Source of the DNA: an uncultured delta proteobacterium
GTDB lineage: Bacteria; Desulfobacterota; Binatia; UBA9968
Length of the DNA stretch: 64,000 nucleotides
Direction of reading: 5' to 3'
Assembly: GCA_963727625.1 (NCBI GenBank)
Contig: CAVSHR010000008.1
Location: 160,001-224,000 of the forward strand
Position 1 is the stretch's first letter. Every line of letters starts with the position of its first letter. A program made the translations under genes and the position numbers. Positions 4,194 to 20,387 of the stretch are shown one piece after another. The notes under the pieces were generated by a model. It was not told the DNA's origin. It did not search any database and saw nothing but the letters and a program-made list of their open reading frames with translations.

Positions 4194-6013
4194 TCAGCGA
4201 CCCACAACAGGAAGACGAGATCCTCGGCAAAGCCTACGACGCCCGCTTGATGGCGCGAATGCTGCGCTATCTGCGGCCCTACTGGAAACTGCTGGCGGTG
4301 TCGCTCACTTTTTTGATGCTGCAGACCGGCACTCAGCTGCTCGGCCCCTACATCACCAAGATCGCCATCGACCGTTACATCGCGCAGCAAGATCTGCGCG
4401 GCCTCGATCTCGTGGCTCTGGCCTATCTGGGCGTGGTCGTGCTCGGCTTCGTCGTGCTGTTCGTGCAAACCTACACCACGCAATATACCGGGCAGCGCGC
4501 CATGCATGACCTGCGCATGGATATTTTTTCCCACTTGCAGAAACAGGACCTGGCTTACTTCGATCGCAACCCGGTGGGCCGCTTAATGACGCGGACGATC
4601 AACGACGTGGAGACGCTCAACGAGCTTTTCAGCACCGGCGTGGTCGGTCTGTTGGGCGATGTATCGATGGTCTTCGGCATCGCCGCGATGATGCTTTGGC
4701 TCGACTGGCAATTGGCGCTGGTTTGTCTGGCGGCCTTTCCGGTGATTCTCTACATCAGCCGGTTTTACCGCCGGCGCGCCCGCGAAGTTTACCGCGAGAG
4801 CCGTTTGGTTCTCGGCCGCCTCAACGCGGACTTGCAGGAAAACATCGCCGGCGTAGCGACGATTCAGGCCTTCGGCCAGGAAGCGAAAATGTACCGGCGT
4901 TTTCAGGATGTCAACTTTCGCTACCGCGACGTGCTGCTGCGCAGCATCCGTTACAACGCGCTGTTTTTTCCGGTGATCGAATTGTTCAGCGCGCTGAGCG
5001 TCGGCCTGCTGCTGTGGTACGGCGGGCACCAGATTCTCGCCAATGCGGTTCAGGCCGGCGTGTTGGTCGCGTTCATTCAGTACATCCAGCGCATGTACCA
5101 GCCGATCCGCGATCTGGCTGAAAAATATAACATCATGCAGGCCGCCATGGCGTCATCGGAGCGGATTTTCGCTTTACTCGACACTCCCGAAACCGTGAAG
5201 AACCCGGTGCATGGAAAAAAACTCGAGGGCTTCGCCGGCGCCGTCGAATTCAAGGATGTCTGGCTTTCTTACCGGGCAGGGGAGCCGGTGCTCAAAGGCA
5301 TTTCGTTTCGCGTTTCCACCGGCGAAAAGGTCGCATTAGTCGGTGCCACCGGCGGCGGGAAAACTTCGATCATCTCGGCGCTCTGCCGCTTTTACGACGT
5401 CGAGCGCGGCGCGGTCTTGGTCGACGGCATCGACGTGCGCGAGTGGAACAAGCAGGAGCTGCGCCGCCACTTGGGGTTGGTGTTGCAGGATGTTTTTCTC
5501 TTCTCCGGCGACATCGCCAACAACATCTCGCTCGGCGATCCGCGCATCGGCGAGCAACAAATACTAGACGCGGCACGGCGCGCCCATATCGCGCCGTTTA
5601 TCGATAAGCTGCCGAAGGGTTATCGAGAAGCGGTGCAGGAACGCGGTTCGACGCTGTCCCAGGGGCAGCGCCAATTGTTGTCCTTCGCGCGCGCACTGGC
5701 CTTCGATCCAAAAATTCTGATTCTCGACGAGGCGACCAGCTCCGTCGACACCGAAACCGAAATGCTGATTCAAGAGGCGCTCGACGAGCTGCTCAAAAAC
5801 CGCACCGCGCTGATCATCGCCCATCGACTGTCGACGATCAAAAACGCCGACCGGATTTTAGTGATTCACAAAGGCGAGATTCGCGAACAAGGGAACCACG
5901 ACGAACTTTTGGCCAAAGGCGGGCTCTACGCCAAGCTACACGACTTACAGTTCCGCATGCCGGAGCGCGCTACCCCGGGCACGGATCCATCGGTGTTGAC
6001 GTCCGAAGTGTAA
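4190..6013 (+). CDS. ABC exporter, fused permease/ATPase (YheH/MdlB-like partner subunit)
   Basis: GTGA overlap with the upstream gene; GATGGGKT, LSQGQRQL, ILDEATSSVD, IAHRLST. Confidence 0.92.
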   Translation: MISDPQQEDEILGKAYDARLMARMLRYLRPYWKLLAVSLTFLMLQTGTQLLGPYITKIAIDRYIAQQDLRGLDLVALAYLGVVVLGFVVLFVQTYTTQYTGQRAMHDLRMDIFSHLQKQDLAYFDRNPVGRLMTRTINDVETLNELFSTGVVGLLGDVSMVFGIAAMMLWLDWQLALVCLAAFPVILYISRFYRRRAREVYRESRLVLGRLNADLQENIAGVATIQAFGQEAKMYRRFQDVNFRYRDVLLRSIRYNALFFPVIELFSALSVGLLLWYGGHQILANAVQAGVLVAFIQYIQRMYQPIRDLAEKYNIMQAAMASSERIFALLDTPETVKNPVHGKKLEGFAGAVEFKDVWLSYRAGEPVLKGISFRVSTGEKVALVGATGGGKTSIISALCRFYDVERGAVLVDGIDVREWNKQELRRHLGLVLQDVFLFSGDIANNISLGDPRIGEQQILDAARRAHIAPFIDKLPKGYREAVQERGSTLSQGQRQLLSFARALAFDPKILILDEATSSVDTETEMLIQEALDELLKNRTALIIAHRLSTIKNADRILVIHKGEIREQGNHDELLAKGGLYAKLHDLQFRMPERATPGTDPSVLTSEV

Positions 6014-8680: not shown

Positions 8681-9331
8681 CTAATCCTTTTCCCGTCTTT
8701 GAAATTTTTCGCGCAAGCGTTCGCGCAGATTGTTTCGCTCTTGATCCTTGCCGCGCTCTCTCAAATCGCGCAGTTTCTCTCGGGCTTCCCGTTTTTCTGC
8801 CGGCGATAACCGGTCGAAACGCGCGCGCGCTTTTTCGCGCAACTCATCGCGCTCGCGGCCGGAAAAGCGCTCGCGCCGTTCCTGTAATTTGTCCCTCAGC
8901 TCCCGGCGGCGCTCCGGCGGTAAATTGCGCAGGGTTTGCATGCGCCGTCTGAGTTCTTCGCGGCGCTTGGCCGGCAGCTGGCGCCAGCGCTGCCAGCGTT
9001 CCTGCAAGCGCCGCCGTTCGGCGGGCGTAAATTTTTGCCAGCGCTCGAAGTTGCGCCGGGCGATGGATTGATCTTCCGGCGAAAGCCGGCGCCAGGTTTC
9101 AAATTTCTTCTGCAGCTCGTCCTTTTCGGCCCGCGGCATATTTTGCCAGCGGCGATAACGCTCGCGCACTTCCTGTTTTTCTTCCGGTGTCATGCGCTGC
9201 CATCGTTCCAGTGCATCCCTATCGGCTTGGGCCAACAGCGCGCGCGGCGGCAGAGGCTGAGCCCAGACCGCGACGGGGACAAGCAGAGTCAATAGCCAAA
9301 CAAAGCTCAGATTTCTCAATAGCGGCTTCAT
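8681..9331 (-). CDS. Secreted DUF3106-like Arg/Trp-repeat helical protein
   Basis: Signal peptide; repeats such as RWQRMTPEEK, RWQNMPRAEK, WRRLSPEDQ, WRQLPAKRR. Confidence 0.8.
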   Translation of the reverse strand: MKPLLRNLSFVWLLTLLVPVAVWAQPLPPRALLAQADRDALERWQRMTPEEKQEVRERYRRWQNMPRAEKDELQKKFETWRRLSPEDQSIARRNFERWQKFTPAERRRLQERWQRWRQLPAKRREELRRRMQTLRNLPPERRRELRDKLQERRERFSGRERDELREKARARFDRLSPAEKREAREKLRDLRERGKDQERNNLRERLREKFQRREKD

Positions 9332-9594
9332 TTAACCGTCTCCTTCTTTTTCCCAGGCGCGCCGGGCGGCGGCACGCCGCTCTTGACCAGCTCGTCGGTA
9401 CTCTCGAGATTTTGCATATCCTGAAGCATTTCCATTTGTTTGATCATTTCCATTTCTCGGAGGAATTCCATCATTTTAAGCATCTCACGATCGGGCGGGT
9501 CATCCTTGGCCCCGGCCGACGCGGCCGTTGGAGCCGTCAAGACCAGACATAGAATCAATCGGCTAAGCGAATTCATGTCCCGTGCGCGGCTCAC
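9328..9594 (-). CDS. Small secreted Met/Glu-rich protein
   Basis: Overlaps both neighbours by 4 nt; signal peptide (LILCLVLTAPTAASA); EMLKMMEFLREMEMIKQMEMLQDM helix. Confidence 0.7.
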   Translation of the reverse strand: MSRARDMNSLSRLILCLVLTAPTAASAGAKDDPPDREMLKMMEFLREMEMIKQMEMLQDMQNLESTDELVKSGVPPPGAPGKKKETVK

Positions 9595-10109
9595 GCGGCA
9601 TTGCCCTGGCTGCCCATGAATTCCAGCAGATCAAGATTATCGAGCACGTCCATGGCCTTGAAAAATTCCAAGTTTTCCGCCACCGGTAGCACTTCCATCA
9701 TCTCGGCATCATCCTGGGCCAGCTCGTTGGTCGACCAGATGCCTCTGCCCAGAGTAAAAGTCATGGCAAGCGCGACGATCGCGGCCGCGGCGAAGACCGG
9801 CACCAGGCGCGGCTGATAAAAAGCCGCGAGAGCTTGGCGCCAACTTTTCTGTTCCGCCGTGCCGTCCAGTTTGTCGCGCAGCTCGCGATTGTAATCAGTC
9901 CAAAACGAAGGCGGCGGCTGGTCGGTTTTAACCGTCAGCGGCAGCAGCGAGCCGAGCTCTTGCAAGTAGCCGGCGCAACCGGCGCAGTTTTGTAAATGCG
10001 CTTGCAGCGTCGCGCCCTCGGTTCGGTCAAGCTCGCCATAATGGTAAAGCACGAGATTCTCTTCCAGTGCTGCGCATGGGGCGGAAAGGATTTTGTTTGG
10101 TTCTGCCAT
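9591..10109 (-). CDS. Anti-sigma factor, zf-HC2 (ZAS) type, single TM
   Basis: HLQNCAGC (HxxxCxxC); TM PVFAAAAIVALAMTF; directly downstream of the ECF sigma gene. Confidence 0.88.
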   Translation of the reverse strand: MAEPNKILSAPCAALEENLVLYHYGELDRTEGATLQAHLQNCAGCAGYLQELGSLLPLTVKTDQPPPSFWTDYNRELRDKLDGTAEQKSWRQALAAFYQPRLVPVFAAAAIVALAMTFTLGRGIWSTNELAQDDAEMMEVLPVAENLEFFKAMDVLDNLDLLEFMGSQGNAA

Positions 10110-10118
10110 CCGGGCCTC

Positions 10119-10778
10119 CTAAGCAAACTCAGCCAGTCGCTGTCTAAGCGTGGTCACGGCGCGGTGCAAGTGCACCTTGACCGTGCCTTCGGCGGTCTCC
10201 ATCAATTCGGCGATCTCTTTGATCGACAGTCCCTGGTGATTTTTCAGTACGAAGGCGGTGCGCTGTTTCGCCGGCAGCTGCACCAACGCTTCGCCTACCC
10301 GCTTGGATATTTGCCGGGCCAAAACTTGCTGGTCGGGCAAAGGGGGCTTTTCACTTTGGTGTGATGGTTCCACTTGGTTCTCGACGGTCTCGTCGAACGG
10401 GTCCGCCGGGGCGCGTTTCTGACGGCGTTTATAATCGAGACAGAGGTTGACCAAAATGCGGTAGAACCAAGTATAAAAACTCGACCGGCCGTCAAAAGTT
10501 TTGAGATTGACGAAGGCTTTCAGAAACGCCTCCTGGGACAGATCCTTGGCATCCTCGCGGTCGCGGGTAAAATCGAAAGCGATGTGGTAGGCCTTTCGTT
10601 CATGGCGCTTCACCAGTTCCTCAAAAGCGCGGCGATCGCCTTGCCGCGCCGATGACACCAGCTCCTCATCCCCAGGGTTCACAAACGGACTCCAATCTAT
10701 CGCTGTTGCATCGCCGCAGAGGCCAAGAAGGAGCCGGCGGCGAGCACGGTTGGCCTCTACCGAGGCAGTGGGAGTCAC
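10119..10778 (-). CDS. ECF RNA polymerase sigma factor (RpoE/SigW-like)
   Basis: GDRRAFEELV, DAKDLSQEAF, SSFYTWFYRI, LSIKEIAE..EGTVKVHLHRA; RBS AAGGGAG before GTG. Confidence 0.93.
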   Translation of the reverse strand: MTPTASVEANRARRRLLLGLCGDATAIDWSPFVNPGDEELVSSARQGDRRAFEELVKRHERKAYHIAFDFTRDREDAKDLSQEAFLKAFVNLKTFDGRSSFYTWFYRILVNLCLDYKRRQKRAPADPFDETVENQVEPSHQSEKPPLPDQQVLARQISKRVGEALVQLPAKQRTAFVLKNHQGLSIKEIAELMETAEGTVKVHLHRAVTTLRQRLAEFA

Positions 10779-10791
10779 GCCTGCTCCCTTG

Positions 10792-10962
10792 TCAGTTCTT
10801 TAGCGCGTCTTTAGCTAAACGGCCAAACTTCCGATGATCGTGTTGCGGCCCATGCGCCTTGGCGGGAGTGATCTTATCTTCTTCCGCGCCGACCGCGTCG
10901 CCGGCAAACACCATTGGGGCCGCGGCCAAGCCTGCCGTCATGATCGCTAAACCCATTATCAT
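10792..10962 (-). CDS. Small (56 aa) putative secreted protein at the head of the ECF operon
   Basis: RBS GAGGG before ATG 10962; signal-like N-terminus MIMGLAIMTAGLAAAPMVFA; lies between the ECF promoter and the sigma gene. Confidence 0.55.
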   Translation of the reverse strand: MIMGLAIMTAGLAAAPMVFAGDAVGAEEDKITPAKAHGPQHDHRKFGRLAKDALKN

Positions 10963-11008
10963 ATTTGTACCCTCGTTCTGAATCGCCGGTCTTACCGGTT
11001 TGAAACGA

Positions 11009-11038
11009 TTAGACGCTTCGGCTCCCAGGAGGTTTACA
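11009..11038 (-). promoter_or_regulatory. ECF-type autoregulatory promoter
   Basis: Minus strand reads TGTAAAC-N16-CGTCTAA, matching the AAC/CGT pattern of SigW/SigM-like ECF promoters. Confidence 0.7.
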
Positions 11039-12066
11039 AGATCGGCATAGGCTGATTTTTTGTCCCGGTACAGTTCTTCCGCCAACCTGAAAAGTTCCGC
11101 GATCTTACCAACTTAAGCTTGTTCCGCCGTCGTGGCGGCAAGTTTGGCCAAGAGCCAATGGTCCTACCATCAGCGCTGTGGGGAACTGGCAAGCCGCCGC
11201 CACTCGGTTATCAAAGCGCTTTGGCATCTTGTACCAATGCGAATGAGGCAGGTTCGTTTGCCCCGCTGGCTGGGTGTTGCGGGAGGCTTACGGTATTTTT
11301 TTCTTCCGCTCCATTCCATGCCCACGCTGCCACTGCCGCGGCTGCTCGGATCACCTATAGGTGCAGCCAGGGGTCTTCCCTCCCCCTCGCACTTGCAGAA
11401 TCATTCGCACCCGAGCCGGTTGCGCAATCGGTTTGTACTTTTCAATCTTTCTGAGCGTCCCAATAGGCTGATCGCAACTTCATGTCTCAAATCCTGTTGT
11501 ATTCAGAATCACTGATCTTGAACAGTCGGTGTTGGTCAGCGGCTGCGAGCGCTAAAATGATCGATCGTCGCCAGTCCAGAGGTGCAGTGTCTGTCCAGTG
11601 CCATACGCGGCCTCGCAAAAAAATCGCAGTCCGCGCGAACTCGGCATGGTTAGGGACCTTAGGGTCGCTGGCCACTCCCGAATTACAGAGCGCAATGCGA
11701 TTCATCTACGGAGATGCGATAGGAAAATTACAACGATCATTAAATTTCCTGCCGTGATTACTTTGCTGGCTGGCAACGGCTAAGACTTTGCCCAAGGATC
11801 AGAGTCTGTTCGCCAAGTGATTCGCGACCAATCAGTGACCGCCGCGCGTCATTTGCTCGGGCTACGCTACCGTCGGGGCGGCATGACCGAACATTACGGC
11901 ATGGAGGTCCGTAATCCCACAAAAGCCCGCGGCAAGATTGGCCCTCTTTGGGGTCGAAATCGGTGCCTCGTTGTATGAGCTTGGGCTCCGGCTTGTCTAT
12001 GAACGCCTGGCTGCATCGACACGAAAGCATAAAGTCGGGGGCTAAGTTCGGCCACAAGCAAGTGAA

Positions 12067-12095
12067 TTGACAAGCAGGAATGGCTTCGGTACCTT
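12067..12095 (+). promoter_or_regulatory. Sigma70 promoter of the metal uptake operon
   Basis: TTGACA-N17-TACCTT, which implies the leader ORF starts at ATG 12109 or 12118 rather than TTG 12067. Confidence 0.65.
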
Positions 12096-12108
12096 CGTGA
12101 TCAAGTCA

Positions 12109-12399
12109 ATGTTTTCAATGGAACAAGACAGCGGTCGCCGGCTGATTGGCGCAATCCTATTAGCCTTCTTGGTTTTTCTACCGCTACACCATCACGCTTT
12201 TACGCCAACGACACAGGTCGCGAAAGAATGCGCATGCGTTCACGGGACGCGTACGCAGATGTTTTTACATGCCGATCTACCGACGGTCGCGCCGATTTTT
12301 CTTGTCACAGCTTTTGCCACACAATATGTATTTTTTTGGGCCGGCAACTGGTCCACTCAAAAAAAGGTCCGCGGTCCCCCCACTGCTCTTTCCGTTTAG
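12109..12399 (+). CDS. Putative metal-sensing ribosome-arrest leader peptide (DUF2946/CruR/CutF-like)
   Basis: Hydrophobic signal/anchor RRLIGAILLAFLVFLPL, HHH, ECACVH, about 44-aa spacer, then C-terminal RGPP. Confidence 0.75.
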   Translation: MFSMEQDSGRRLIGAILLAFLVFLPLHHHAFTPTTQVAKECACVHGTRTQMFLHADLPTVAPIFLVTAFATQYVFFWAGNWSTQKKVRGPPTALSV

Positions 12400-12426
12400 C
12401 TCGATCAACTATCCCAGCTAGTTTTT

Positions 12427-12465
12427 CGTCCTCTTTAGAGCCATTCGCGCGCTAAAGAGGGGACG
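12427..12465 (+). promoter_or_regulatory. Stem-loop between the leader peptide and the first operon gene
   Basis: CGTCCTCTTTAG ... CTAAAGAGG(GG)ACG inverted repeat; no U-tract. Confidence 0.6.
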
Positions 12466-12492
12466 TCATTTGTCTTGGAGGGGGGGCATTTT

Positions 12493-13776
12493 ATGGTGTT
12501 ATCCTTGTTACGGATGCCCGTGTTGAGCGCATCCGCTTTTGTCAGTTTTTTATTGCTTGTTCCGGTGCTGTGTTTCGCTCAAAGCTCTGAGATCGAGGCG
12601 TTGCGTTCGGTCGTTGACGGATTACAGCAGCAACTGCAAAAGGCCTTGCAGCGAATCGATCAACTGGAAAAAGAAAAGTCGGTTACGGCGGAGAAGATCG
12701 ATCGAGTGCAATCTGCGACTTCGACAGGGGTGGGAAATGTCGAAAAATCCGTACAGTCGCTAAAAGCTGCGCCGGCAGCTTTGAACCCGAGCATCGGAAT
12801 GGTGCTGGATGCCAATGTTTCGCAGAAGTCGGCAGAGGGAGGTAATTTCAATTTTCGCAGTGCGGAGATCGGACTTTCCGCATCCGTCGACCCGTTTGCT
12901 AGGGTGTACGGGTTTATCAACGGTACTTCGGACGGTGTGGAAGTGGACGAAGCGGCCGCGATTACAACTTCGCTGCCGTGGAACCTAACCGCGAAAGGGG
13001 GTCGATTCCTGGCCGATTTCGGGCGCTTCCCCAAGGTTCATGAACATGAACTGCCGTTCGTGAACGAGCCGCTGTCAGTGGAAAGAATGATCGGCGGGGA
13101 AACCCAGGCGGACGGGGTGGAGATGAATTACCTCTTTCCAACGCCATTTTTTTTGAGAGCGACAATCGGCGGATATAACAAGATAGGAGAGGGAAACGAT
13201 AGGGTAGACAACACAAATTTACGGTCGTGGAGTCGTTTCACCTACCTCGCCCGGCTCAATACTTATTTTGATATCACCGACAATCACAGTATCGAGTTAG
13301 GCACTAGCCATGCTTACACGCCTTCGCTGCGTCTTCCTGGCGATAGGTTTGGCGGAAATCGGATTCTCAGCGGCATAGATTTGACTTATCGCTATCAGCC
13401 GTTGGACAGCGTCGTGTACCAGGGATTAACTGTAGGCTCGGAATTTTTTCGCAACAGCGAGCGGATCGGGTTCGACGACGGTTCCAAACGGCGCCAATCC
13501 TACGGCGGCTATAGCTATGCCGAATTGAAGCTGAACAAGAATTGGTCTACGGGTTTTCTCTTCGATTATGCTCCTAGCATCGAAAGCCCCGGCAAGAAAA
13601 CCATCGGCTACTCGCCGTTTCTCACTTGGAATATGAGTGAATTCAATCGCTTGCGTTTGCAGTTCACACACATGGACGACCGCGTTCGTGAAGACAAGGC
13701 TGATCGCGGGAATCAGGTGTTTCTCCAATGGACCACGGTTATTGGAGCGCATACCCACGGCTTTCTTGGCCGCTGA
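12493..13776 (+). CDS. Outer-membrane beta-barrel protein of the type linked to Zn/metal ABC operons
   Basis: Signal peptide, N-terminal coiled coil, VHEHELPFV motif, alternating beta strands, SEFNRLRLQF, His-containing C-terminus GAHTHGF; RBS GGAGG. Confidence 0.75.
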   Translation: MVLSLLRMPVLSASAFVSFLLLVPVLCFAQSSEIEALRSVVDGLQQQLQKALQRIDQLEKEKSVTAEKIDRVQSATSTGVGNVEKSVQSLKAAPAALNPSIGMVLDANVSQKSAEGGNFNFRSAEIGLSASVDPFARVYGFINGTSDGVEVDEAAAITTSLPWNLTAKGGRFLADFGRFPKVHEHELPFVNEPLSVERMIGGETQADGVEMNYLFPTPFFLRATIGGYNKIGEGNDRVDNTNLRSWSRFTYLARLNTYFDITDNHSIELGTSHAYTPSLRLPGDRFGGNRILSGIDLTYRYQPLDSVVYQGLTVGSEFFRNSERIGFDDGSKRRQSYGGYSYAELKLNKNWSTGFLFDYAPSIESPGKKTIGYSPFLTWNMSEFNRLRLQFTHMDDRVREDKADRGNQVFLQWTTVIGAHTHGFLGR

Positions 13777-13800: not shown

Positions 13801-14730
13801 ATGAATAGCAGACTGTTGAGCCATAAAAACTGGAACATAATTTTGGCTGCTTTGTCTATTCTCGTCTTACAATCAGGTGCGGTTTTTGCGCAACAGATTC
13901 GAGTCGTGGCCACTTTTCCCGATCTCGCCGATATTACTCGGCAGATCGGCAAAGACTTGGTCAACGTGGATAGTCTCGCAAAAGGGGTCGAGGATCCGCA
14001 CGGCGTGCCCATGAAGCCGAGCTTTGTTCCTCGACTCAACCGTGCCGACGTGCTGGTTCTCACGGGCTTGGATGACGAGCATTCTTGGCTGCCGGCGCTT
14101 CTGGAAGTGGCCGCTAATCCCAAAATTCTTCTTGGCCGGCCGGGATATATAGACTGCTCAGCGGGTGTGCCGATACTTGAGGCGCCCGCATTGTTGGACC
14201 GATCGGAAGGTGATCTTCACCCAAAGGGAAATCCCCACTACTTGTTGGATCCTAATAACGCAAAAATTGCGGCACGGAACATCGCCGCCGGCCTTTCGCG
14301 AAACTTTCCTCAGCATCAGCAGGTTTTTGATAAAAATCTCAAAGCTTACCTCACGGAGCTCGACGGTTGGATCGTTCGCTGGGCGAAAATCGCGGCGCCG
14401 TTGCGTGGCGTCAAGTACGTCGAATACCATCCAGAGTGGGTTTATTTCGCCAATCGCTTTGGACTGAAACGGATCGGCAGCGTCGAGCTAAAGCCAGGCA
14501 TTGAGCCGACGCCGAACCATCTGGTTCAACTTGCTCGGCAGATCAAGCAGGAAAAGGCTCAAGTGTTGATTTACGGCGCGCAAAATCCGCGCATCCCCCA
14601 ACAGATGCATGGCGAAACCGGCATTAAAGTCCTGCGCCTTTACACCAGCGCGGGCGGCCGCCCGGAGACTGATAGTTACATCAAGTGGATCGATTATACC
14701 GTGCGCAGCTTAGTTCAAGCGGTGAGTTGA
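13801..14730 (+). CDS. Metal ABC transporter substrate-binding protein (ZnuA/TroA cluster A-I)
   Basis: VVATFPDLADI, EDPH, GNPHYLLDP, YHPEWVYF, KPGIEPT. Confidence 0.92.
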   Translation: MNSRLLSHKNWNIILAALSILVLQSGAVFAQQIRVVATFPDLADITRQIGKDLVNVDSLAKGVEDPHGVPMKPSFVPRLNRADVLVLTGLDDEHSWLPALLEVAANPKILLGRPGYIDCSAGVPILEAPALLDRSEGDLHPKGNPHYLLDPNNAKIAARNIAAGLSRNFPQHQQVFDKNLKAYLTELDGWIVRWAKIAAPLRGVKYVEYHPEWVYFANRFGLKRIGSVELKPGIEPTPNHLVQLARQIKQEKAQVLIYGAQNPRIPQQMHGETGIKVLRLYTSAGGRPETDSYIKWIDYTVRSLVQAVS

Positions 14731-14734
14731 GTTC

Positions 14735-15463
14735 ATGAAGAAAGCAACGGATACCGATGCGGTCCTAGCCACCAGAGGCGCGGCTCTGGGCGTCGACCTC
14801 GTGCCGCTGGTCTCACTCCAAAACGTCAGCCTGGGATACGGTTCGACTCGGGTCTTGATCAATGTCGACTTAACCGTCTATCCCGGAAACCTCGTTGGCT
14901 TGGCGGGGCCTAACGGTTCCGGCAAAACGACTCTTTTCAGGACGATTCTCGGCTTCTTGCCGGTGCTGGGCGGAACGCTTTCGCGCGGATGCTCGCTGGC
15001 CAATTTCGGGTACGTGCCGCAGAGCACGGCGCTCGACCCGCAGTTTCCACTGAGCGTCGGTGAAATCGTCGAAATGGGCGCCTATGGCCGTGTTGGTCCT
15101 TGGCGCCTTTTTCCGGCACATGAAACGAAACGAGCCGCGCAGGCATTGGAGCACGTGGGCATGGGGCATGTTCAAAAGAAATCCTTTTTTGCGCTCTCCG
15201 GCGGCCAAAAGCAACGCGTCCTAATCGCACGCGCGTTGATGGTCGACCCGAAAATCATGGTTCTCGATGAGCCACTTTCGGGAGTCGACGAGGAATCGCG
15301 GCGCAGCATCACCGAGCTGCTGATCGAGTTGGTTCGTGCGAGCGGTCTCGCGGTATTCTTTTCCAGCCATGATTTGGAAATGGTGCAGCGGGTGGCCGAC
15401 AAAATAGTTCGCGTCGATAGTGGGAGGGTTTTGGTCGAGGAAAGGCGGTCGCATTCGTCATGA
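14735..15463 (+). CDS. Metal ABC transporter ATP-binding protein (ZnuC-like)
   Basis: GPNGSGKTT, GYVPQ..FPLSV, LSGGQKQRVLIARAL, LDEP, SHD. Confidence 0.92.
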   Translation: MKKATDTDAVLATRGAALGVDLVPLVSLQNVSLGYGSTRVLINVDLTVYPGNLVGLAGPNGSGKTTLFRTILGFLPVLGGTLSRGCSLANFGYVPQSTALDPQFPLSVGEIVEMGAYGRVGPWRLFPAHETKRAAQALEHVGMGHVQKKSFFALSGGQKQRVLIARALMVDPKIMVLDEPLSGVDEESRRSITELLIELVRASGLAVFFSSHDLEMVQRVADKIVRVDSGRVLVEERRSHSS

Positions 15464-16908
15464 ATAGTTTTCTGGAAATCATGAGTCCTTCCTACCTGCT
15501 CTTCCCCGCGCTAGTCGGCACGCTGATCATGGGGGTCGTCTGCCCGCTTATCGGATCTTTTCTAGTGTTGCGCAGAACGATTTTTCTAGGCTTGACGCTC
15601 CCCGAAATCGCCGCCGCAGGGGTGTCGTGCACCTTTTGGTTGCAGCAAGTCGGAGTCTTGCCACAGCTCGCACAGGGCGAGCGAGGCATTGGCATGATCG
15701 GCTCTCTAGTGTTTACTTTCCTGGGGATGGGCTTATTGGGTTATCTGGAGCAGCGCGGTAAGGGACTGGCCGAAGCCCGGCTCGCGGCCGCCTATGCGTT
15801 TGCCGGAGCTTTGACCATTTTGTTCATGGTGTTCAATCCGGCCGGTCAGATTGAAGTGCTCAACCTCCTCAAGGGTGAGGTCATCGCCTTGACGCGTGGC
15901 GAGCTCAAGCTCGTAGTTGCGCTGTTCGGCGCAGTCGGCGTTGCCATGCTGGCGTTCCGCCGCGAATTTCTTTTGACCTCGTTCGATCGCGACCTGGCTT
16001 TTCTGCTCAAGGGGCGGCAGATTGTCTGGGATATATTGCTCTATCTGCTCGCCGGCTTGATCATAGCGATCGGCGTGATCATGGCGGGACCGTTGTTGAT
16101 TTTTGGTTTTCTAGTGTTGCCAGCGCTCGCGGCCAAACCGCTGGCCAAACGCATGAGTACCTACCTGCTGCTTTCTTCCTTGCTCGGATTCGCGATGGCG
16201 TTTATGGGTTTCTACAGTTCGGTGCGCCTGGATCTTCCCCTGGGTCCGAGCGACGTGGCCCTGGGCTGCTGCTTGATTTTTGGCGCCTATGGGTTAGGCA
16301 GGATAACAACCCGGAAAGCGGCCGCGTCAGTCGTGCTGATTGGCTTGGCTATGACATTGAGCGCTTGCGGCGCCCGCGTAGCCACAAGTCCGGTGCCGGA
16401 GGCCAAAGCCATTCATGCCGAGCAACTCTGGTTGGCCAAGGTGCGGAACAGCACCGCGCTGCCGTTGCTCTTGCCGACCGCCAATCCGCTCCGCTCGCTT
16501 GCCGAGATGGCCGGCAAGACTTCATCGAATTACCGGGAGAGCGTGATGGATTTGTTGCGTGAGAATTTGCAGGCTGAGCTCGTCTTGAAAGGCTTCGACA
16601 TTTCTCGTCCGGAGGACAAGGACGCGCGCTTCCCGCCGTTTCCCGCGGATAACCTAAGCGCCGCGCGCATGGCTCGCGAGGGAAAACTATCGGGGATGGT
16701 TTTCGTAAGCGAGATTTACCGGTGGGAGGGCGAAACGCAAAGGTTTGTTCGCGCCCTCGTGGATTTCAAACTTGTGCGCATCGATGACGGTGCGATCGTC
16801 TGGCAGCGACGGGTTCAGCGCGCTGTTCCAACGCCCAGCGCGACCAATCTCGCGCAGGCCTCGGCCGACGCTGTCAAAGCGATCATGCGGGACCTGTTTC
16901 CCAGCTGA
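15460..16908 (+). CDS. Metal ABC permease (ZnuB/ABC-3) fused to a C-terminal lipoprotein-like soluble domain
   Basis: First ~280 aa are ABC-3 permease (GSFLVLRR, SFDRDLA, DLPLGP); then LAMTLSAC lipobox and ~180 soluble residues. Confidence 0.8.
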   Translation: MNSFLEIMSPSYLLFPALVGTLIMGVVCPLIGSFLVLRRTIFLGLTLPEIAAAGVSCTFWLQQVGVLPQLAQGERGIGMIGSLVFTFLGMGLLGYLEQRGKGLAEARLAAAYAFAGALTILFMVFNPAGQIEVLNLLKGEVIALTRGELKLVVALFGAVGVAMLAFRREFLLTSFDRDLAFLLKGRQIVWDILLYLLAGLIIAIGVIMAGPLLIFGFLVLPALAAKPLAKRMSTYLLLSSLLGFAMAFMGFYSSVRLDLPLGPSDVALGCCLIFGAYGLGRITTRKAAASVVLIGLAMTLSACGARVATSPVPEAKAIHAEQLWLAKVRNSTALPLLLPTANPLRSLAEMAGKTSSNYRESVMDLLRENLQAELVLKGFDISRPEDKDARFPPFPADNLSAARMAREGKLSGMVFVSEIYRWEGETQRFVRALVDFKLVRIDDGAIVWQRRVQRAVPTPSATNLAQASADAVKAIMRDLFPS

Positions 16909-16921
16909 AAAGGCAAAAGCT

Positions 16922-17671
16922 ACGTCAACCATCTGGTCCTATAGCCTCGCCAGCGTCATCCTGGTAAGCCTGCTGTCACTCGTCGGCATCGCCTTTGTCT
17001 CGATCAGCGAGCGCCGACTGAATCAGCTCATTTTCGTGATGGTCGGTCTCGCCGTCGGCAGCCTGTTCGGCGATGCTTTTATCCACCTCCTGCCACGGTC
17101 CTTCGAGCAGTCGCCGAATCACTTGCGTGTCTCGCTGGCGATTCTCGCCGGGATTTTCGCATTTTTCGTCCTGGAAAAATTTCTCCTCTGGCGCCATGAG
17201 CACGTCCTGGAACCCGGCCACGCGGTCCATCCGGTCGGATACATGAACCTGGTCGCCGATGGGCTGCATAATTTTATCGACGGCGTGATTATCGGCGCTT
17301 CTTATCTTGTCAGCTATCAAACCGGCGTCGCTACGACGCTGGCGGTAATCTTTCACGAAATTCCCCACGAGCTCGGCAATTTCTTTGTCCTGCTGTACGC
17401 CGGATTTACAAAAACCAAGGCACTGTTTTTTAATTTCGTCTCGGCGCTGGCGGCGATCTTGGGCACGGTGATCGCGCTCGTCATCGGCTCTGAAATGCAG
17501 AACTTCGCGCAGATGATGCTACCCCTCGCGGCGGGCGGATTTATTTACATCGCCGGTTCCGATCTGGTTCCCGAGCTCAACAAAGAGGTGCGGCTGTCGA
17601 AATCGCTGGTGCAAATGGTTTCGATCGGCGCGGGCATCGGTTTGATGTTGTTGCTAGCGCTCGTGGAATGA
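16922..17671 (+). CDS. ZIP family divalent metal transporter; start uncertain (ACG 16922 proposed)
   Basis: GDAFIHLLP, HEH loop, DGLHNFIDG, HEIPHELG, GFIYIAGSDLVPEL. Confidence 0.9.
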   Translation, partial: TSTIWSYSLASVILVSLLSLVGIAFVSISERRLNQLIFVMVGLAVGSLFGDAFIHLLPRSFEQSPNHLRVSLAILAGIFAFFVLEKFLLWRHEHVLEPGHAVHPVGYMNLVADGLHNFIDGVIIGASYLVSYQTGVATTLAVIFHEIPHELGNFFVLLYAGFTKTKALFFNFVSALAAILGTVIALVIGSEMQNFAQMMLPLAAGGFIYIAGSDLVPELNKEVRLSKSLVQMVSIGAGIGLMLLLALVE

Positions 17672-17681
17672 AAGGAACTCC

Positions 17682-20387
17682 ATGAAAACTTGGTCTAGAT
17701 TCCCCGACTTTGACTGCGTCCGGTTAGTGCGGTGGACGTTACTCCTCTGCAGCATCCTGTTTTTCACCCGAGGAAATGTCTTCGGCGAGGTCGCTGGCGA
17801 ATCGCAAATCACCCGCGCGACGCTCAAGAACGGTCTGCGTGTCGTGATCGTTCGCAACGCGCTCGCGCCGGTGGTGACCACGGAAATCAATTACCTGGCC
17901 GGATCCAACGAAGCGCCCGACGGCTTTCCCGGCATGGCCCACGCCCTCGAACATATGATGTTTAGGGGCAGTTCGGGGCTGACGTCGGCTCAGCTCTCCA
18001 GCCTGATCGCGGCCATGGGCGGAAGTTTCAACGCCGATACCCAGCAGACGGTGACGCAATATTTTTTCACCGTTCCAGCGAACGATCTTGAAACCGCGCT
18101 GCATATCGAATCGTTGCGCATGCGCGGCGTGCTAGCGACCGACGCGCTGTGGGAGCAGGAGCGGGGCGCCATCGAACAGGAGGTGGCGCAGGACCTGTCC
18201 AATCCGCAATATTTGTTTTACTCGCGGCTGCTCGAGCAAATCTATGCCGGCACGCCCTACGCGCACACCGCGCTAGGCACCCGGCCGTCGTTTGATAAAA
18301 CCACAGGCCTGATGCTCAAGGATTTTCACCGAAAATGGTACGCGCCCAATAACGCGATTTTAGTGATCGTTGGCGACGTGAATCCAACCCAAGCGCTCGC
18401 CACCGTCAAGCGGTTGTTCGAGCCGATTCCGGCCCGTTCTCTACCGGCGCGACCAAAGATCGTCCTGCCGCGGCTGAAGCCCGGCAAAATCGAAATTGAT
18501 TCCGACCTGTCCTACGGCTTGGCCGCCGTTGCGTACCGTCTGCCGGGCTACAACGACGCGGATTTCGCCGCTGGGATCGTCTTGGCCGACGCGCTCGATA
18601 GCCGCCGCGGCGAACTGTACGGGCTCGCCGCCGAGGGTAAAGCGCTGTCCGGCGGATTCGACGCCAGCGCCTTGCCCGCCGCCGGCTTCGGATACGCCAA
18701 TGCGGCGTTTTCCCACGGCCAAGACAGCGCGGCGTTGGTCGATGAACTCAAGCGCATTGTCGCGGGCTATGTCGCCGACGGCATCCCCGCGGAGTTGGTG
18801 GAAGCGACCAAACGACACGAAGTGGCGGAGGCGCAATTTCGCAGAAATTCCATCGCGGGATTGGCCGCCGAATGGTCCCAAGCGCTGGGGGTAGAAGGGC
18901 GGCGCTCGCCGGACGACGATATCGAAGCAATCAAAAAAGTTACGGCCGACGACGTCAACCGCGTTGCGAAAAAATACTTGGTTAATGAAAACGCGCTCGT
19001 CGTGGTCATGACGCCGCACGAATCCGGCGAGGCCGTAGCAGCGCAGGGTCCACGTTCGGGCGGCGAATCTTTTACGCCCAAAGAGACTAAACCGGTGCCG
19101 CTGCCAGCCTGGGCAAAAAAAGTGCTTGCGCCATTGGCTGTGCCGGCATCTGCCGTCCATCCGATTGATACGATGCTGCCCAACGGTTTGCGTCTGATCA
19201 TTCAACCCGAATCTATCAGCGATACCGTGAGCGTCTACGGCCGGGTGAAACACCGCGCCGAGCTGCAAGTGCCGCCGGGCAAGGAAGGGACGGAGCAGAT
19301 TCTTAGCAGTCTCTTCTCTTACGGTTCGACTCAGCTCGATCGACTCGCTTTCCAACGAGCCCTCGATAAGATCGGTGCCAGGGTTCATGCCGGCACCGGG
19401 TTTTCACTCGAAGTCTTACCGGACGATTTTGCACGCGGCGTGGAATTGTTGGCCGATAATTTGCTGCATCCCGCGCTTCCCGAGGCCGCGTTCAAGGCGG
19501 TCCGGCAGCGCACGGGTCAAGCCGTGGCCGGTCAACGGCTCAGTCCGATCTACCGTTCGGGCCGGGCGTTCCTTAAAGCGATCTATCCTGAAAATGATCC
19601 GACTCTGCGCGAAGCGACGCCGGAAACCGTGGCATCGATTACGCTCGAAGAGGTGCGTCATTATCATCAAGCGGTCTTCAGACCCGATCTCACAACGATT
19701 GTCGTCATCGGTAAAGTGACGCCGGAACACGCGCGCGCCGTCCTTGAACGATATTTCGGCGCATGGCAGGCCAGCGGTCCAAAACCGAAAACCGAGCTGC
19801 CGCCGGTGCCGCGCAATGGCGCCGCCACAATCGTGGTGCCGGATCGAAGCCGAGTCCAAGACGAGGTCACGCTCGGTCAAACTTTCGGATTGACCCGCCG
19901 CGACGCCGACTACTATCCGCTGCAGCTCGGTTTGAACGTTTTATCCGGCGCCTTCTATGCGACGCGTTTATACCGCGACCTGCGGGAGCAAAGCGGACTG
20001 GTTTACTCAGTGGGGGCTGAGCTGGAATCGAGCAATTCCCGATCTGTGTTCGTCGTGTCCTACGCCTGCGATCCGGTCAACGTGACCAAAGCGAGAGCGA
20101 TCGTCGAGCGCAATCTGCGCGAGATGCAGCGCAAACCGGTGACCGCCGCCGAATTGTTGCAAGCGAAAACTTTACTTTTGCGGAACATCCCGCTGTCCGA
20201 ATCGAGCACGGGTGAGATCGCGGCGGGATTGCTCGATCGGGCCACCCGAGAGCTGCCGCTCGATGAACCGATGCGCGCAGCTTCACGGATTAAAGATATG
20301 ACGGCGGCCGATGTTCAAGCCGCATACGCGAAATGGCTCAAGGTCGAAGAGCTTGCCGAGGTCGTGCTGGGGCCAGAGCCCAAGTAA
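17682..20387 (+). CDS. Exported M16 (pitrilysin-like) zinc peptidase, fused two-module type
   Basis: Signal peptide; inverted zinc motif GMAHALEHMMFRG; two LxNGLR modules; SRLY-like TRLYRDLREQSGLVYS. Confidence 0.92.
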   Translation: MKTWSRFPDFDCVRLVRWTLLLCSILFFTRGNVFGEVAGESQITRATLKNGLRVVIVRNALAPVVTTEINYLAGSNEAPDGFPGMAHALEHMMFRGSSGLTSAQLSSLIAAMGGSFNADTQQTVTQYFFTVPANDLETALHIESLRMRGVLATDALWEQERGAIEQEVAQDLSNPQYLFYSRLLEQIYAGTPYAHTALGTRPSFDKTTGLMLKDFHRKWYAPNNAILVIVGDVNPTQALATVKRLFEPIPARSLPARPKIVLPRLKPGKIEIDSDLSYGLAAVAYRLPGYNDADFAAGIVLADALDSRRGELYGLAAEGKALSGGFDASALPAAGFGYANAAFSHGQDSAALVDELKRIVAGYVADGIPAELVEATKRHEVAEAQFRRNSIAGLAAEWSQALGVEGRRSPDDDIEAIKKVTADDVNRVAKKYLVNENALVVVMTPHESGEAVAAQGPRSGGESFTPKETKPVPLPAWAKKVLAPLAVPASAVHPIDTMLPNGLRLIIQPESISDTVSVYGRVKHRAELQVPPGKEGTEQILSSLFSYGSTQLDRLAFQRALDKIGARVHAGTGFSLEVLPDDFARGVELLADNLLHPALPEAAFKAVRQRTGQAVAGQRLSPIYRSGRAFLKAIYPENDPTLREATPETVASITLEEVRHYHQAVFRPDLTTIVVIGKVTPEHARAVLERYFGAWQASGPKPKTELPPVPRNGAATIVVPDRSRVQDEVTLGQTFGLTRRDADYYPLQLGLNVLSGAFYATRLYRDLREQSGLVYSVGAELESSNSRSVFVVSYACDPVNVTKARAIVERNLREMQRKPVTAAELLQAKTLLLRNIPLSESSTGEIAAGLLDRATRELPLDEPMRAASRIKDMTAADVQAAYAKWLKVEELAEVVLGPEPK

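Follow-up and report, generated by a model that had tools for sequence, protein, structure and literature searches.

The window, the whole stretch of 64,000 nucleotides that was analysed, carries a short open reading frame (ORF) ahead of genes for a porin-like protein, an ABC importer, a ZIP transporter and an M16 peptidase. The features of the locus are as follows, with the evidence for their assignment.

12067 to 12095, forward strand: promoter, with the -35 element TTGACA at 12067-12072, a 17-nt spacer and the -10 element TACCTT at 12090-12095.
12109 to 12399, forward strand: leader ORF of 96 aa plus stop (ATG at 12109, stop at 12397-12399).
12139 to 12195, forward strand: hydrophobic helix, residues about 11-26, ending in LPLHxH, with His27 and His29 within 12187-12195.
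12229 to 12249, forward strand: KE-CxC-xHG motif, in which CxCxH spans residues 41-45; Cys41 and Cys43 are invariant and Gly46 nearly so.
12250 to 12369, forward strand: spacer of variable sequence and fixed length (family alignment).
12370 to 12381, forward strand: RGPP motif, residues 88-91 (codons CGC GGT CCC CCC), with five further codons (TALSV) ahead of the stop.
12373 to 12394, forward strand: anti-Shine-Dalgarno (anti-SD) strand with its core at 12374-12381, inside the footprint of a ribosome predicted to stall at RGPP.
12430 to 12460, forward strand: intervening stable hairpin (CCUCUUUAG...CUAAAGAGG), from RNA folding.
12477 to 12495, forward strand: Shine-Dalgarno (SD) sequence GGAGGGGGGG at 12477-12486 and ATG of the porin-like gene at 12493-12495, from the sequence.
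12493 to 13776, forward strand: porin-like outer-membrane barrel with an N-terminal coiled coil (AlphaFold2, Foldseek; no Pfam match).
13801 to 16908, forward strand: ABC importer (Pfam; NCBIfam), made up of the following three genes.
13801 to 14730, forward strand: ZnuA-family binding protein (Pfam; best NCBIfam match AztC, below cut-off).
14735 to 15463, forward strand: ABC ATPase (Pfam; best NCBIfam match AztA, below cut-off).
15460 to 16908, forward strand: ABC-3 permease with a C-terminal extension (Pfam; best NCBIfam match AztB, below cut-off).
16745 to 17671, forward strand: ZIP transporter ORF, whose true start is probably later (best match ZupT).
17682 to 20387, forward strand: M16 peptidase (Pfam).

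The promoter ahead of the 96-residue ORF was read as TTGACA-N17-TACCTT, in agreement with the original prediction, and the TTGACA and TAnnnT columns were kept in 29 of the 31 aligned upstream regions of the leader family. A promoter consensus scan did not flag it, and TACCTT matched only three of the six consensus positions. Judged from the alignment, the leader promoter is conserved, with the form TTGACA-N17-TAnnnT. No conserved operator-like palindrome was visible in the promoter alignment. An ECF-sigma promoter was also considered and was rejected because the conserved hexamers were sigma-70-like. The leader ATG lies 13 nt past the end of the -10 element, and no SD sequence was present ahead of it. 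In the majority of relatives, an ATG or GTG was placed 7-8 nt past the -10 element, which is a leaderless-type layout; on this upstream alignment, most members of the family look leaderless.

The leader ORF had 27 close homologues (45-75% identity), and 30 genomic loci with a leader were collected, 29 with R[AG]PP and one with RSPP. Among 1.84 billion cluster representatives, 146 matched the leader family. Of 32,927 mechanical ORFs (at least 60 aa) in its own genome, 13 carried R[AG]PP 2-6 aa before the stop; a TM-like segment was present in only 2 of the 12 such ORFs of at most 250 aa, the leader ORF being one of them. These counts indicated that the leader gene is a real, conserved gene, exceeding chance. 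None of 200 genomes drawn from the rest of the phylum matched the family (0/200), and in this sample the family is lineage-restricted. Pfam and NCBIfam scans assigned the leader to no family, and there is an annotation gap, in that a conserved operon-leading gene with 146 clusters is at present without a family name. The comparison with DUF2946 (PF11162) that was suggested along with the original prediction left the leader unrecognised: the HMM matched neither the leader protein nor any of 47 family members at E<=10 (0/47), and it gave no match at E<=0.001 over the six frames of the leader's own genome. A separate RAPP leader in the same genome, which precedes Cox11/SCO1 copper genes, gave a weak DUF2946 match of 18.3 bits (Pfam gathering score, 23.7 bits). 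As judged by HMM, the leader family is distinct from DUF2946.

Within the leader protein, L24, P25, L26, H27 and H29 were invariant in 47 sequences, and the family consensus was LP(L/F)HxH. AlphaFold2 modelled residues 5-30 as a helix and the remainder as coil. The HHH of the window protein corresponds to residues 27-29, and its middle His is usually F, V or S in relatives. Among 131 motif-complete representatives, the position of Gly46 was G in 115, and the position of His45 was H in 61 and Q in 30. The ligands originally proposed, HHH and CxCxH, are both present in the window protein, but only HxH and CxC belong to the conserved set; by residue conservation, the candidate ligand set is His2Cys2. 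Downstream of the Cys motif, the distance from the first Cys to the Arg was 47 residues in 57 of 58 sequences and in 125 of the 131 representatives, with 44 residues intervening between Cys43 and RGPP, and per-position pairwise identity in the spacer was only about 5-20% among the representatives. The spacer, which is mildly hydrophobic in the window, was also considered as a second transmembrane helix, but this was rejected, as hydrophobicity was unconserved and AlphaFold2 gave coil.

R88, P90 and P91 were invariant in the leader family, and the residue between R88 and P90 varied: 58 sequences comprised 38 RGPP, 19 RAPP and one RSPP, and the 131 representatives comprised 104 RAPP, 22 RGPP, four RSPP and one RDPP. 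The tail after RxPP was 2-6 residues long in 127 of the 131. The RGPP that had been predicted at 12370-12381, five codons before the stop, was read there directly, with R(A/G)PP interchange across the family; spacer length, Cys motif and R(G/A)PP were likewise conserved upstream of orthologous operons, as had been anticipated. The ORF shows the features by which the RAPP/RGPP class is recognised, namely a small protein, an N-terminal helix, R(A/G)PP near the C-terminus and a co-directional gene downstream. RAPP and RGPP have been reported as the two motifs with the most robust arrest in experiments, and toeprinting of CruR showed the P and A sites to be occupied by its two Pro codons (PMC12992588). 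By this resemblance, ribosomes would be expected to stall at RGPP.

The gene order downstream was conserved as well. The porin-like gene was the next gene in 28 of 30 leader loci, co-directional and at a distance of 73-110 nt, the leader was always first in the operon, and ZnuA followed the porin in all 25 loci that reached that far. The placement of the leader before a porin/ZnuABC/ZIP operon rather than a copper gene was thus borne out. The AlphaFold2 model of the porin-like protein (pLDDT 65) had a long N-terminal helix and a multi-stranded beta sheet region, and Foldseek matched it to OmpT, OprO/OprP, OmpM1 and DcaP (probability 1.00, TM about 0.5). The best NCBIfam matches of the importer, with scores against cut-offs in bits, were AztC (95.8/350), AztA (172.9/220) and AztB (74.4/280). 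The best PDB matches of the binding protein were the zinc-binding proteins Synechocystis ZnuA, YcdH and AdcA, and its DPH, NPH and YHPEW His motifs aligned with Synechocystis ZnuA; we take these His residues to be Zn ligands. The operon metal is probably zinc on these matches, and zinc is a best guess because all NCBIfam transporter matches fell below the curated cut-offs, with Mn-type models next.

RNA folding linked the end of the leader to the start of the porin-like gene. In the MFE and centroid structures of the window, 12374-12381 (the G-P-P codons) was paired with 12480-12487 (the porin SD). The energy of this duplex between leader tail and ribosome-binding site (RBS) was -19.7 kcal/mol, and the anti-SD strand was the best RBS partner in the entire leader mRNA. 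Across loci, cognate tail/RBS duplexes had a mean energy of -19.2 kcal/mol, compared with -16.3 kcal/mol for non-cognate duplexes (permutation p = 5e-5). The corresponding test on Watson-Crick runs gave p = 5e-5, or 1e-4 in the non-redundant set. The best RBS partner lay between RxPP and the stop in 20 of 29 loci; in the other nine, it lay in the ORF body (6) or in a hairpin arm (3). Because the register of the pairing varies from one locus to another, these tests were register-free; when the 29 intergenic regions were aligned with MAFFT, RNAalifold predicted 0 pairs, and it is the register-free tests that support the anti-SD/SD helix. The folding z-score of the window region was -0.25, which was not significant. 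An equivalent of the intervening hairpin was found in 29 of 29 loci, usually with the arms CCCUCC/GGGAGG. An Rfam scan of 10500-13000 gave 0 matches at E<=1; therefore, the leader does not represent a riboswitch or leader RNA of a known type. When a stalled ribosome was modelled, the probability that the SD is unpaired rose modestly in the window, from 0.18 to 0.30, and across loci it rose by more than 0.1 in 16 of 29 and fell by more than 0.1 in none. In silico, the predicted arrest site was linked to mRNA structure through an anti-SD/SD helix centred on it. On these statistics, the codons at and after RGPP and the porin RBS show covarying complementarity, a coupling device that was absent from the original prediction.

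Collectively, family conservation, the fixed spacer, synteny and anti-SD covariation support the arrest-peptide reading first put forward for this ORF, and we consider it likely that the ORF is a cis-acting, CruR/CutF-like regulatory leader of the RAPP/RGPP arrest-peptide class. In the mechanism that we propose, transcription of the leader would start from its strong, conserved promoter and leave almost no 5' UTR, and the N-terminal helix would carry the nascent chain to the membrane. When the ribosome reached R88-G-P-P, peptide-bond formation would stall, Pro90 then occupying the P site and Pro91 the A site. At this point, the invariant HxH at the helix end would have just emerged, together with the invariant CxC, whose two Cys residues lie 49 and 47 residues away from the peptidyl-transferase centre. 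The stalled ribosome would cover RGPP and the tail codons, that is, the anti-SD strand of the long-range helix that masks the porin RBS, and translation of the porin, and probably also of the tightly packed ZnuABC/ZIP genes, would be switched on. If metal were available, most likely Zn(II), its binding by the His2Cys2 set could compact and pull the chain and release the arrest; the ribosome would then terminate five codons on and leave, the helix would re-form and the uptake genes would be switched off. The C-rich RNA exposed in this way may additionally recruit Rho. The sensing compartment could be periplasmic or cytoplasmic. The stall is probably relieved once His2Cys2 binds metal, although this polarity is unreadable from the sequence because metal can enhance stalling in CutF (10.1101/2025.02.05.636593).

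RAPP/RGPP leaders ahead of metal genes are an already published class (PMC9426467, PMC9973294, PMC12992588). A close comparison is with CruR (Bp2923, DUF2946) of Bordetella pertussis, an upstream ORF that responds to copper in the bfrG TonB-receptor operon and in which the 45 intervening residues have a conserved, functionally important spacing and the export signal is reported to be dispensable (PMC9426467). Both leaders are the first gene of a metal-acquisition operon and begin with an export signal or TM segment. In both, a Cys motif is followed, after a spacer whose length is conserved (45 residues intervene in CruR, 44 after Cys43 here), by a RAPP-type motif 3-5 residues before the stop, and the intergenic region is long and structured; importer logic would be expected in both, in which the stall means ON and metal relieves it. 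In contrast to the CxxC of CruR, the present family has CxC and HxH, no DUF2946 HMM match, a leaderless-type promoter layout and a porin and ZnuABC/ZIP-type operon instead of copper genes.

The two also differ in the output, as Rho-dependent termination has been shown for CruR (PMC9426467), whereas a covarying anti-SD/SD helix was found here. It is conceivable, though rather unlikely, that the same sensor acts here mainly through transcription termination, by Rho or an intrinsic hairpin, instead of SD unmasking, and termination may also act jointly with the SD helix. The 80 nt from RxPP to 50 nt past the stop had a mean of 35% C and 20% G and ranked on average among the top ~4% of windows per locus (top 0.2% in the sequence studied here), but the anti-SD strand and hairpin arm themselves account for part of this C-richness. 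A U-rich stretch followed the last helix in 10 of 29 loci and an adjacent U-tract was absent in 19; a terminator consensus scan did not flag the intergenic hairpin of the window and gave only a weak 5-pair stem at 12371-12386. With an intrinsic terminator, moreover, stalling would switch expression off, and the covarying anti-SD/SD helix would be left unexplained.

CutF of the Rhodobacter capsulatus cutFOG operon resembles the present leader in that its sensor is a co-translationally exported nascent chain, and its stall at a C-terminal proline motif is described as opening an mRNA structure that shields the RBS of the next gene (PMC9973294; 10.1101/2025.02.05.636593). It carries CxxxC and an EF-P-sensitive PPP, in contrast to CxC and R(A/G)PP here; R(A/G)PP arrest has been reported as refractory to EF-P (PMC12992588). 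In CutF, stalling is increased by metal and a detoxifying oxidase is induced, whereas the target here is an importer and the opposite polarity would be expected. A CutF-type polarity, or another signal, would mean that metal, copper or thiol oxidation of CxC enhances the stall and the ligand induces the operon; the transporter would then serve another metal or task. Cys pairs also bind Cu(I), and the transporter family matches were below cut-off with Mn models close behind. The operon, however, encodes importers, namely a ZnuA-family binding protein, an ABC-3 permease, a ZIP transporter and a porin; metal importers are normally repressed by their metal. Copper also seems to have its own sensor in the same genome, the DUF2946-like RAPP leader before Cox11/SCO1. 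More stalling with Cu bound was described for CutF, together with a proposed relief by disulfide formation (10.1101/2025.02.05.636593), but on balance we regard such a polarity or signal as improbable for the present leader.

That the gene instead encodes a small, stable membrane protein, for example a metallochaperone or an accessory subunit of the porin/ABC system, in which RxPP is a structural or degradation feature without arrest, is very improbable: HxH and CxC are very strongly conserved, the gene is always operon-first and a stable protein could double as an arrest leader, but a length-locked spacer of free sequence is unlike a folded domain, AlphaFold2 predicted disorder past the helix, and the A/G interchange exactly at the arrest motif and the anti-SD complementarity centred there would go unexplained.

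Read as an arrest-peptide leader, the ORF also falls beside ApdA, ApdP, ApcA and the Streptomyces lividans set, which are small secreted or membrane proteins with a C-terminal R(A/G)PP upstream of a regulated gene (PMC7897499, PMC12992588). Some RAPP/RGPP peptides are encoded ahead of metal genes and contain Cys and His residues that are conserved, but those shown experimentally are described as monitoring Sec/YidC or preceding copper, thioredoxin or sigma-factor genes (PMC12992588). In the main texts of PMC12992588 and PMC9973294, the words zinc, ZnuA and porin are absent. As in SecM-secA and MifM-yidC2, a stalled ribosome would disrupt a helix that sequesters the downstream SD, and a pulling force would free the arrest. 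SecM-secA and MifM-yidC2 are monitoring substrates in which arrest is released by pulling on the nascent chain. The force there comes from the monitored translocation machinery, whereas it is proposed here to come from metal-dependent compaction of His2Cys2.

The description of this leader as an undescribed metal-responsive translational switch stands in part: the family is distinct, with different ligands and a different operon, but the general class of RAPP/RGPP metal leaders was already published. Metal-sensing arrest peptides have been shown experimentally for copper only (CruR, CutF). We tentatively suggest that the present leader may be the first zinc-responsive nascent-peptide sensor, with a co-translational His2Cys2 site whose closure by metal pulls the chain from an R(A/G)PP arrest. 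The leader family would be a good test system, with only four invariant candidate ligand residues, and its residue-exact spacer length with free sequence and sequence-readable output helix suit it to measuring how a ligand bound outside the ribosome drives release of an arrest at the catalytic centre. If the suggestion is true, the distance of CxC from the peptidyl-transferase centre is fixed at exactly 47-49 residues, CxC is paired with HxH at the membrane-helix end, and a (near-)leaderless transcript with its anti-SD in the footprint of the stalled ribosome would form a self-contained switch for zinc that acts post-transcriptionally. A protein-based zinc sensor at the post-transcriptional level would extend arrest sensing past copper and fill the zinc gap noted by Roy et al.; such a switch may replace or overlay Zur-type transcriptional control of zinc uptake in soil lineages (records labelled Binatia and others).

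The putative leader of the uptake operon had been described as a secreted or anchored arrest peptide, and every feature named in the original prediction was found in the sequence and its translation. The locus comprises the following features.

12067-12072, + strand: promoter -35 hexamer TTGACA, read in the sequence
12090-12095, + strand: promoter -10 hexamer TACCTT, at a 17-nt spacer from the -35 hexamer
12109-12399, + strand: leader ORF in a 96-codon frame, start codon ATG at 12109, stop codon at 12397-12399, N-terminal stretch hydrophobic
Leader residues 27-29: HHH
Leader residues 41-45: CxCxH
Leader residues 88-91 (12370-12381, + strand): RGPP, followed by five codons and the stop
12477-12486, + strand: GGAGGGGGGG, Shine-Dalgarno sequence of the porin-like gene, whose ATG lies at 12493

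The distribution of the leader was assessed by several searches. A word-indexed search returned 27 relatives with 45-75% identity, none of which carries a name, and a scan of one genome per species located 30 leader loci. The majority belonged to metagenome-assembled genomes that go by Candidatus Binatia or "delta proteobacterium"; in a few cases the label was Acidiferrales, Eisenbacteria, Chloroflexota, Udaeobacter or Syntrophobacter. When 1.84 billion cluster representatives were searched with a profile, 146 family proteins were obtained at E<=0.001, of which 130 reached E<=1e-10. Because the matches fell off sharply beyond the latter level, these results suggested a discrete family. All motifs were complete in 131 representatives; the other 15 missed at least one, and several of them look truncated or frame-shifted. 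The leader was present in 36 of the 81 genomes sampled from the window's own order, among them the genome of the window and two that are flagged as unpublished. By family, it occurred in 32/47 genomes of the window's own family, 3/5 of a second and 0/28 of a third, and it was found in 0/200 other genomes drawn evenly across the phylum. The window organism's genome (6.6 Mb) holds a single copy.

The most striking result was a fixed distance, or ruler, between the first Cys and the Arg of the arrest-type motif. This distance was exactly 47 residues in 57 of 58 sequences and in 125 of the 131 representatives; among the remaining representatives, four had 48 residues, one had 45 and one had 50. 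Pairwise identity within this spacer was only about 5-20% per position, one semi-conserved Pro excepted, and the distance from HxH to CxC, unlike the ruler, varied from 15 to 17. The motifs at both ends were kept as well. The arrest-type motif was RGPP in 38, RAPP in 19 and RSPP in 1 of the 58 sequences, and RAPP in 104, RGPP in 22, RSPP in 4 and RDPP in 1 of the 131 representatives. After the Pro-Pro pair, the representatives carried five residues in 73 cases, two in 28, three in 13 and four in 9. The conservation of Cys motif, arrest motif and spacer length expected at homologous loci was thus observed. Residues L24, P25, L26, H27, H29, C41, C43, G46, R88, P90 and P91 were invariant in 47 aligned members. 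The proposed ligands HHH and CxCxH held in part: HxH and CxC were conserved, but the middle His is mostly F, V or S in the family, and the His45 position was H in 61/131 and Q in 30/131 representatives. Since these two histidines vary, the conserved candidate ligand set is His2Cys2. The AlphaFold2 model built on the family alignment contained one helix (residues 5-30) and otherwise coil, with a mean pLDDT of 64.

Arrest leaders of this class have been published, including CruR (PMC9426467) and CutF (PMC9973294; 10.1101/2025.02.05.636593), and the text of a survey reports that small secreted or membrane proteins with RAPP/RGPP are enriched upstream of metal genes (PMC12992588). The DUF2946 model failed to recognize the leader family, in agreement with the predicted distinctness. 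The family also differs from the published metal leaders in carrying HxH and CxC instead of CxxC or CxxxC, and in heading a porin/ZnuABC/ZIP operon. The main text of PMC12992588 and that of PMC9973294 contain none of the words "zinc", "ZnuA" and "porin"; the family may still be listed without comment in their figures or supplementary cluster lists. Literature searches brought up no arrest leader that responds to zinc. With the class known, and given the lack of DUF2946 recognition, the other ligands and the other operon, we rated the family as a probable variant within that class.

Promoter architecture was compared among 31 aligned upstream sequences. TTGACA, a 17-nt spacer and TAnnnT occupied fixed columns in 29 of them, and no conserved operator-like palindrome was detected in or around the hexamers. 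The window promoter escaped the promoter scan tool, as TACCTT fits the -10 consensus at only 3/6 positions. In 28/31 sequences an ATG or GTG lay 7-8 nt past the -10 hexamer, at the expected transcription start, so that most members seem to be leaderless. The window has AAG in this column, and its ATG (12109) sits 13 nt past the -10 hexamer; its 5' UTR should accordingly span only a few bases, with no Shine-Dalgarno sequence. An Rfam scan of window positions 10500-13000 gave no match. The ECF sigma gene is separated from the leader promoter by ~1.3 kb (10792-12066); this gap, which has counterparts in other loci, likewise had no Rfam match and contains only a weak 97-aa minus-strand ORF (10792-11085).

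The window operon consists of tightly packed genes, with short gaps or overlaps, in the order leader, porin-like gene, ZnuA-family binding protein, ABC ATPase, ABC-3 permease, ZIP and M16 peptidase. A porin-like homologue directly followed the leader in 28/30 loci; of the two exceptions, the L021 locus stops 3 nt past the leader, and in the L018 locus the leader is followed by a MerC-like membrane protein. Porin was followed by ZnuA in all 25 loci reaching that far. Genes for an ECF sigma factor, a zf-HC2 anti-sigma factor and a DUF3106 protein lay divergently upstream in 25/30 loci. In the window they occupy 8681-10778 on the - strand, together with a small ORF, and the zf-HC2 domain is of a zinc-binding type; a functional link to the leader is possible, although its hexamers are sigma-70-like.

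The porin-like protein had no Pfam match. Its AlphaFold2 model (pLDDT 65) combined a long N-terminal helix with a multi-stranded beta region, and Foldseek matched it to OmpT, OprO/OprP, OmpM1, OmpF and DcaP (probability 1.00, TM about 0.5). It has an N-terminal coiled coil, and DcaP is among these matches. Its C-terminal motif WTTV(L/I)G(A/S)H(T/A)HGF (13740-13776) is conserved in homologues, and the two His at the barrel terminus form a possible metal site. The best NCBIfam matches of the transporter were the zinc system AztC/AztA/AztB and ZupT, all under curated cut-offs, with manganese models next. The best solved relatives of the binding protein were Synechocystis ZnuA, YcdH and AdcA, with aligned DPH, NPH and YHPEW motifs, whose histidines we take to be zinc ligands. 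Because of these sub-threshold matches, the neighbouring manganese models and the presumed role of the histidines, zinc is only a best guess for the operon metal. The ABC-3 permease ORF (15460-16908) is extended at its C-terminus by ~190 aa, which open with a signal resembling that of lipoproteins (lipobox-like LSAC). In the L011 and L025 loci the two halves of this ORF match as separate pieces, and the extension may be a fused or overlapping lipoprotein gene. The M16 peptidase pair (17682-20387) best matched YfmF and YfmH, which are associated with EF-P modification, at 114 bits against a cut-off of 285. This is probably generic M16 similarity, though curious beside a polyproline-arrest leader.

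The RNA linking leader and porin-like gene was then considered. When 12340-12510 was folded, both the MFE and the centroid structure paired the Gly-Pro-Pro codons (GUCCCCCC, 12374-12381) with the porin Shine-Dalgarno (GGGGGGGC, 12480-12487) and enclosed a stable local hairpin at 12430-12460; the energy of the fold was not unusual in itself (z = -0.25). Across 29 loci the layout was shared: leader tail, ~40 nt, a stable hairpin (arms usually CCCUCC/GGGAGG, -12 to -29 kcal/mol), a U-rich stretch, Shine-Dalgarno and start codon, within an intergenic length of 73-110 nt. In the predicted free RNA, the Shine-Dalgarno region was paired with the RxPP or tail codons. Several duplexes reached far past the Shine-Dalgarno core, and their two strands had changed in a complementary way; 14 contiguous pairs in L005 and 12 in L020 are examples. 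RNAalifold on a MAFFT alignment of the intergenic regions returned zero consensus pairs because the pairing register varies among loci, and three register-free tests were therefore used. Cognate tail/RBS duplexes averaged -19.2 kcal/mol versus -16.3 in 812 non-cognate combinations (permutation p = 5e-5), and the longest Watson-Crick runs were longer in cognate pairs (p = 5e-5; 1e-4 without one near-duplicate). When the whole leader mRNA was scanned without bias for the best 20-nt partner of the RBS, this partner lay between the Arg codon and just past the stop in 20/29 loci, in the ORF body in 6/29 and in the intergenic hairpin arm in 3/29. To model a stalled ribosome, all bases as far as 15 nt beyond the first Pro codon were treated as ribosome-covered, since the CruR toeprint in PMC12992588 places the Pro-Pro codons in the P and A sites. 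The effect was modest: mean Shine-Dalgarno unpaired probability rose from 0.18 to 0.30, with an increase above 0.1 in 16/29 loci and a decrease above 0.1 in 0/29.

We propose that a ribosome arrested at R(G/A)PP would keep the anti-Shine-Dalgarno strand in its mRNA channel, leaving the porin ribosome-binding site free for translation of the uptake genes; upon release, it would terminate a few codons on and the helix would close. Homeostasis of an importer needs metal to lower expression, so metal should relieve the arrest, a logic shown for CruR (PMC9426467). By the presumed geometry, Cys41 and Cys43 would stand 49 and 47 residues from the catalytic centre at arrest, with His27 and His29 where the membrane helix ends, so that the His2Cys2 set would have only just become exposed while the free-sequence spacer fills the tunnel and possibly the translocon. 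The 47-residue ruler fits this geometric requirement; the CruR spacer is similarly length-conserved (45 intervening residues), and five added residues impaired copper control, as reported in PMC9426467. The site of sensing would be the periplasm, as for CutF, or the cytoplasm, the location proposed for CruR. A second output was also considered. Over the 80 nt that start at RxPP and run 50 nt beyond the stop, C made up 35% and G 20%; averaged over the loci, this placed the segment within the highest ~4% of windows of its locus, and in the window itself within the highest 0.2%. This C-rich, G-poor region makes a Rho loading site after the arrest motif possible, as in CruR. A U-rich stretch directly followed the last helix in 10/29 loci, the window not among them, and an intrinsic terminator would be at most a lineage-specific addition. 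All of these results, and the reading of stalling, metal binding, metal identity and polarity, are computational; no RNA run containing this sequence was found.

Further leaders were found in other genomes (L011, L018 and L010) and on another contig of the window organism's genome (L035).

L011:4421-4714 with 4837-5316: paralogous leader of the same family, preceding a MerC-like membrane protein
L018:1293-1586: paralogous leader of the same family, preceding a MerC-like membrane protein
L010:5737-6177: paralogous leader of the same family, between a P1B-type ATPase and an NlpC/P60 gene
L035:1120-1494, + strand: second RAPP leader, 124 aa, TM-like N-terminus, His-rich, two Cys, ending IRAPPLA

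The paralogues of L011, L018 and L010 have tails of 2-4 residues and end in RAPPVS, RAPPVL or RAPPTDLL. Given their positions before MerC-like genes and beside a P1B-type ATPase, the leader module is reused ahead of other metal-related genes. In the window organism's genome, a mechanical scan found R[AG]PP 2-6 residues before the stop in 13 of 32,927 ORFs. Twelve of these were <=250 aa, and only two of the twelve, this leader and that of L035, had a TM-like segment. The L035 leader matched DUF2946 below threshold (E = 0.004; 18.3 bits against a cut-off of 23.7) and is followed, up to 4888, by BiPBP_C-like, CtaG/Cox11, SCO1/SenC and DUF4382 genes. It has the appearance of a CruR-type copper leader that precedes copper chaperones of cytochrome oxidase. 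These results suggested that the organism possesses a conventional copper leader in addition to the distinct 96-aa leader.
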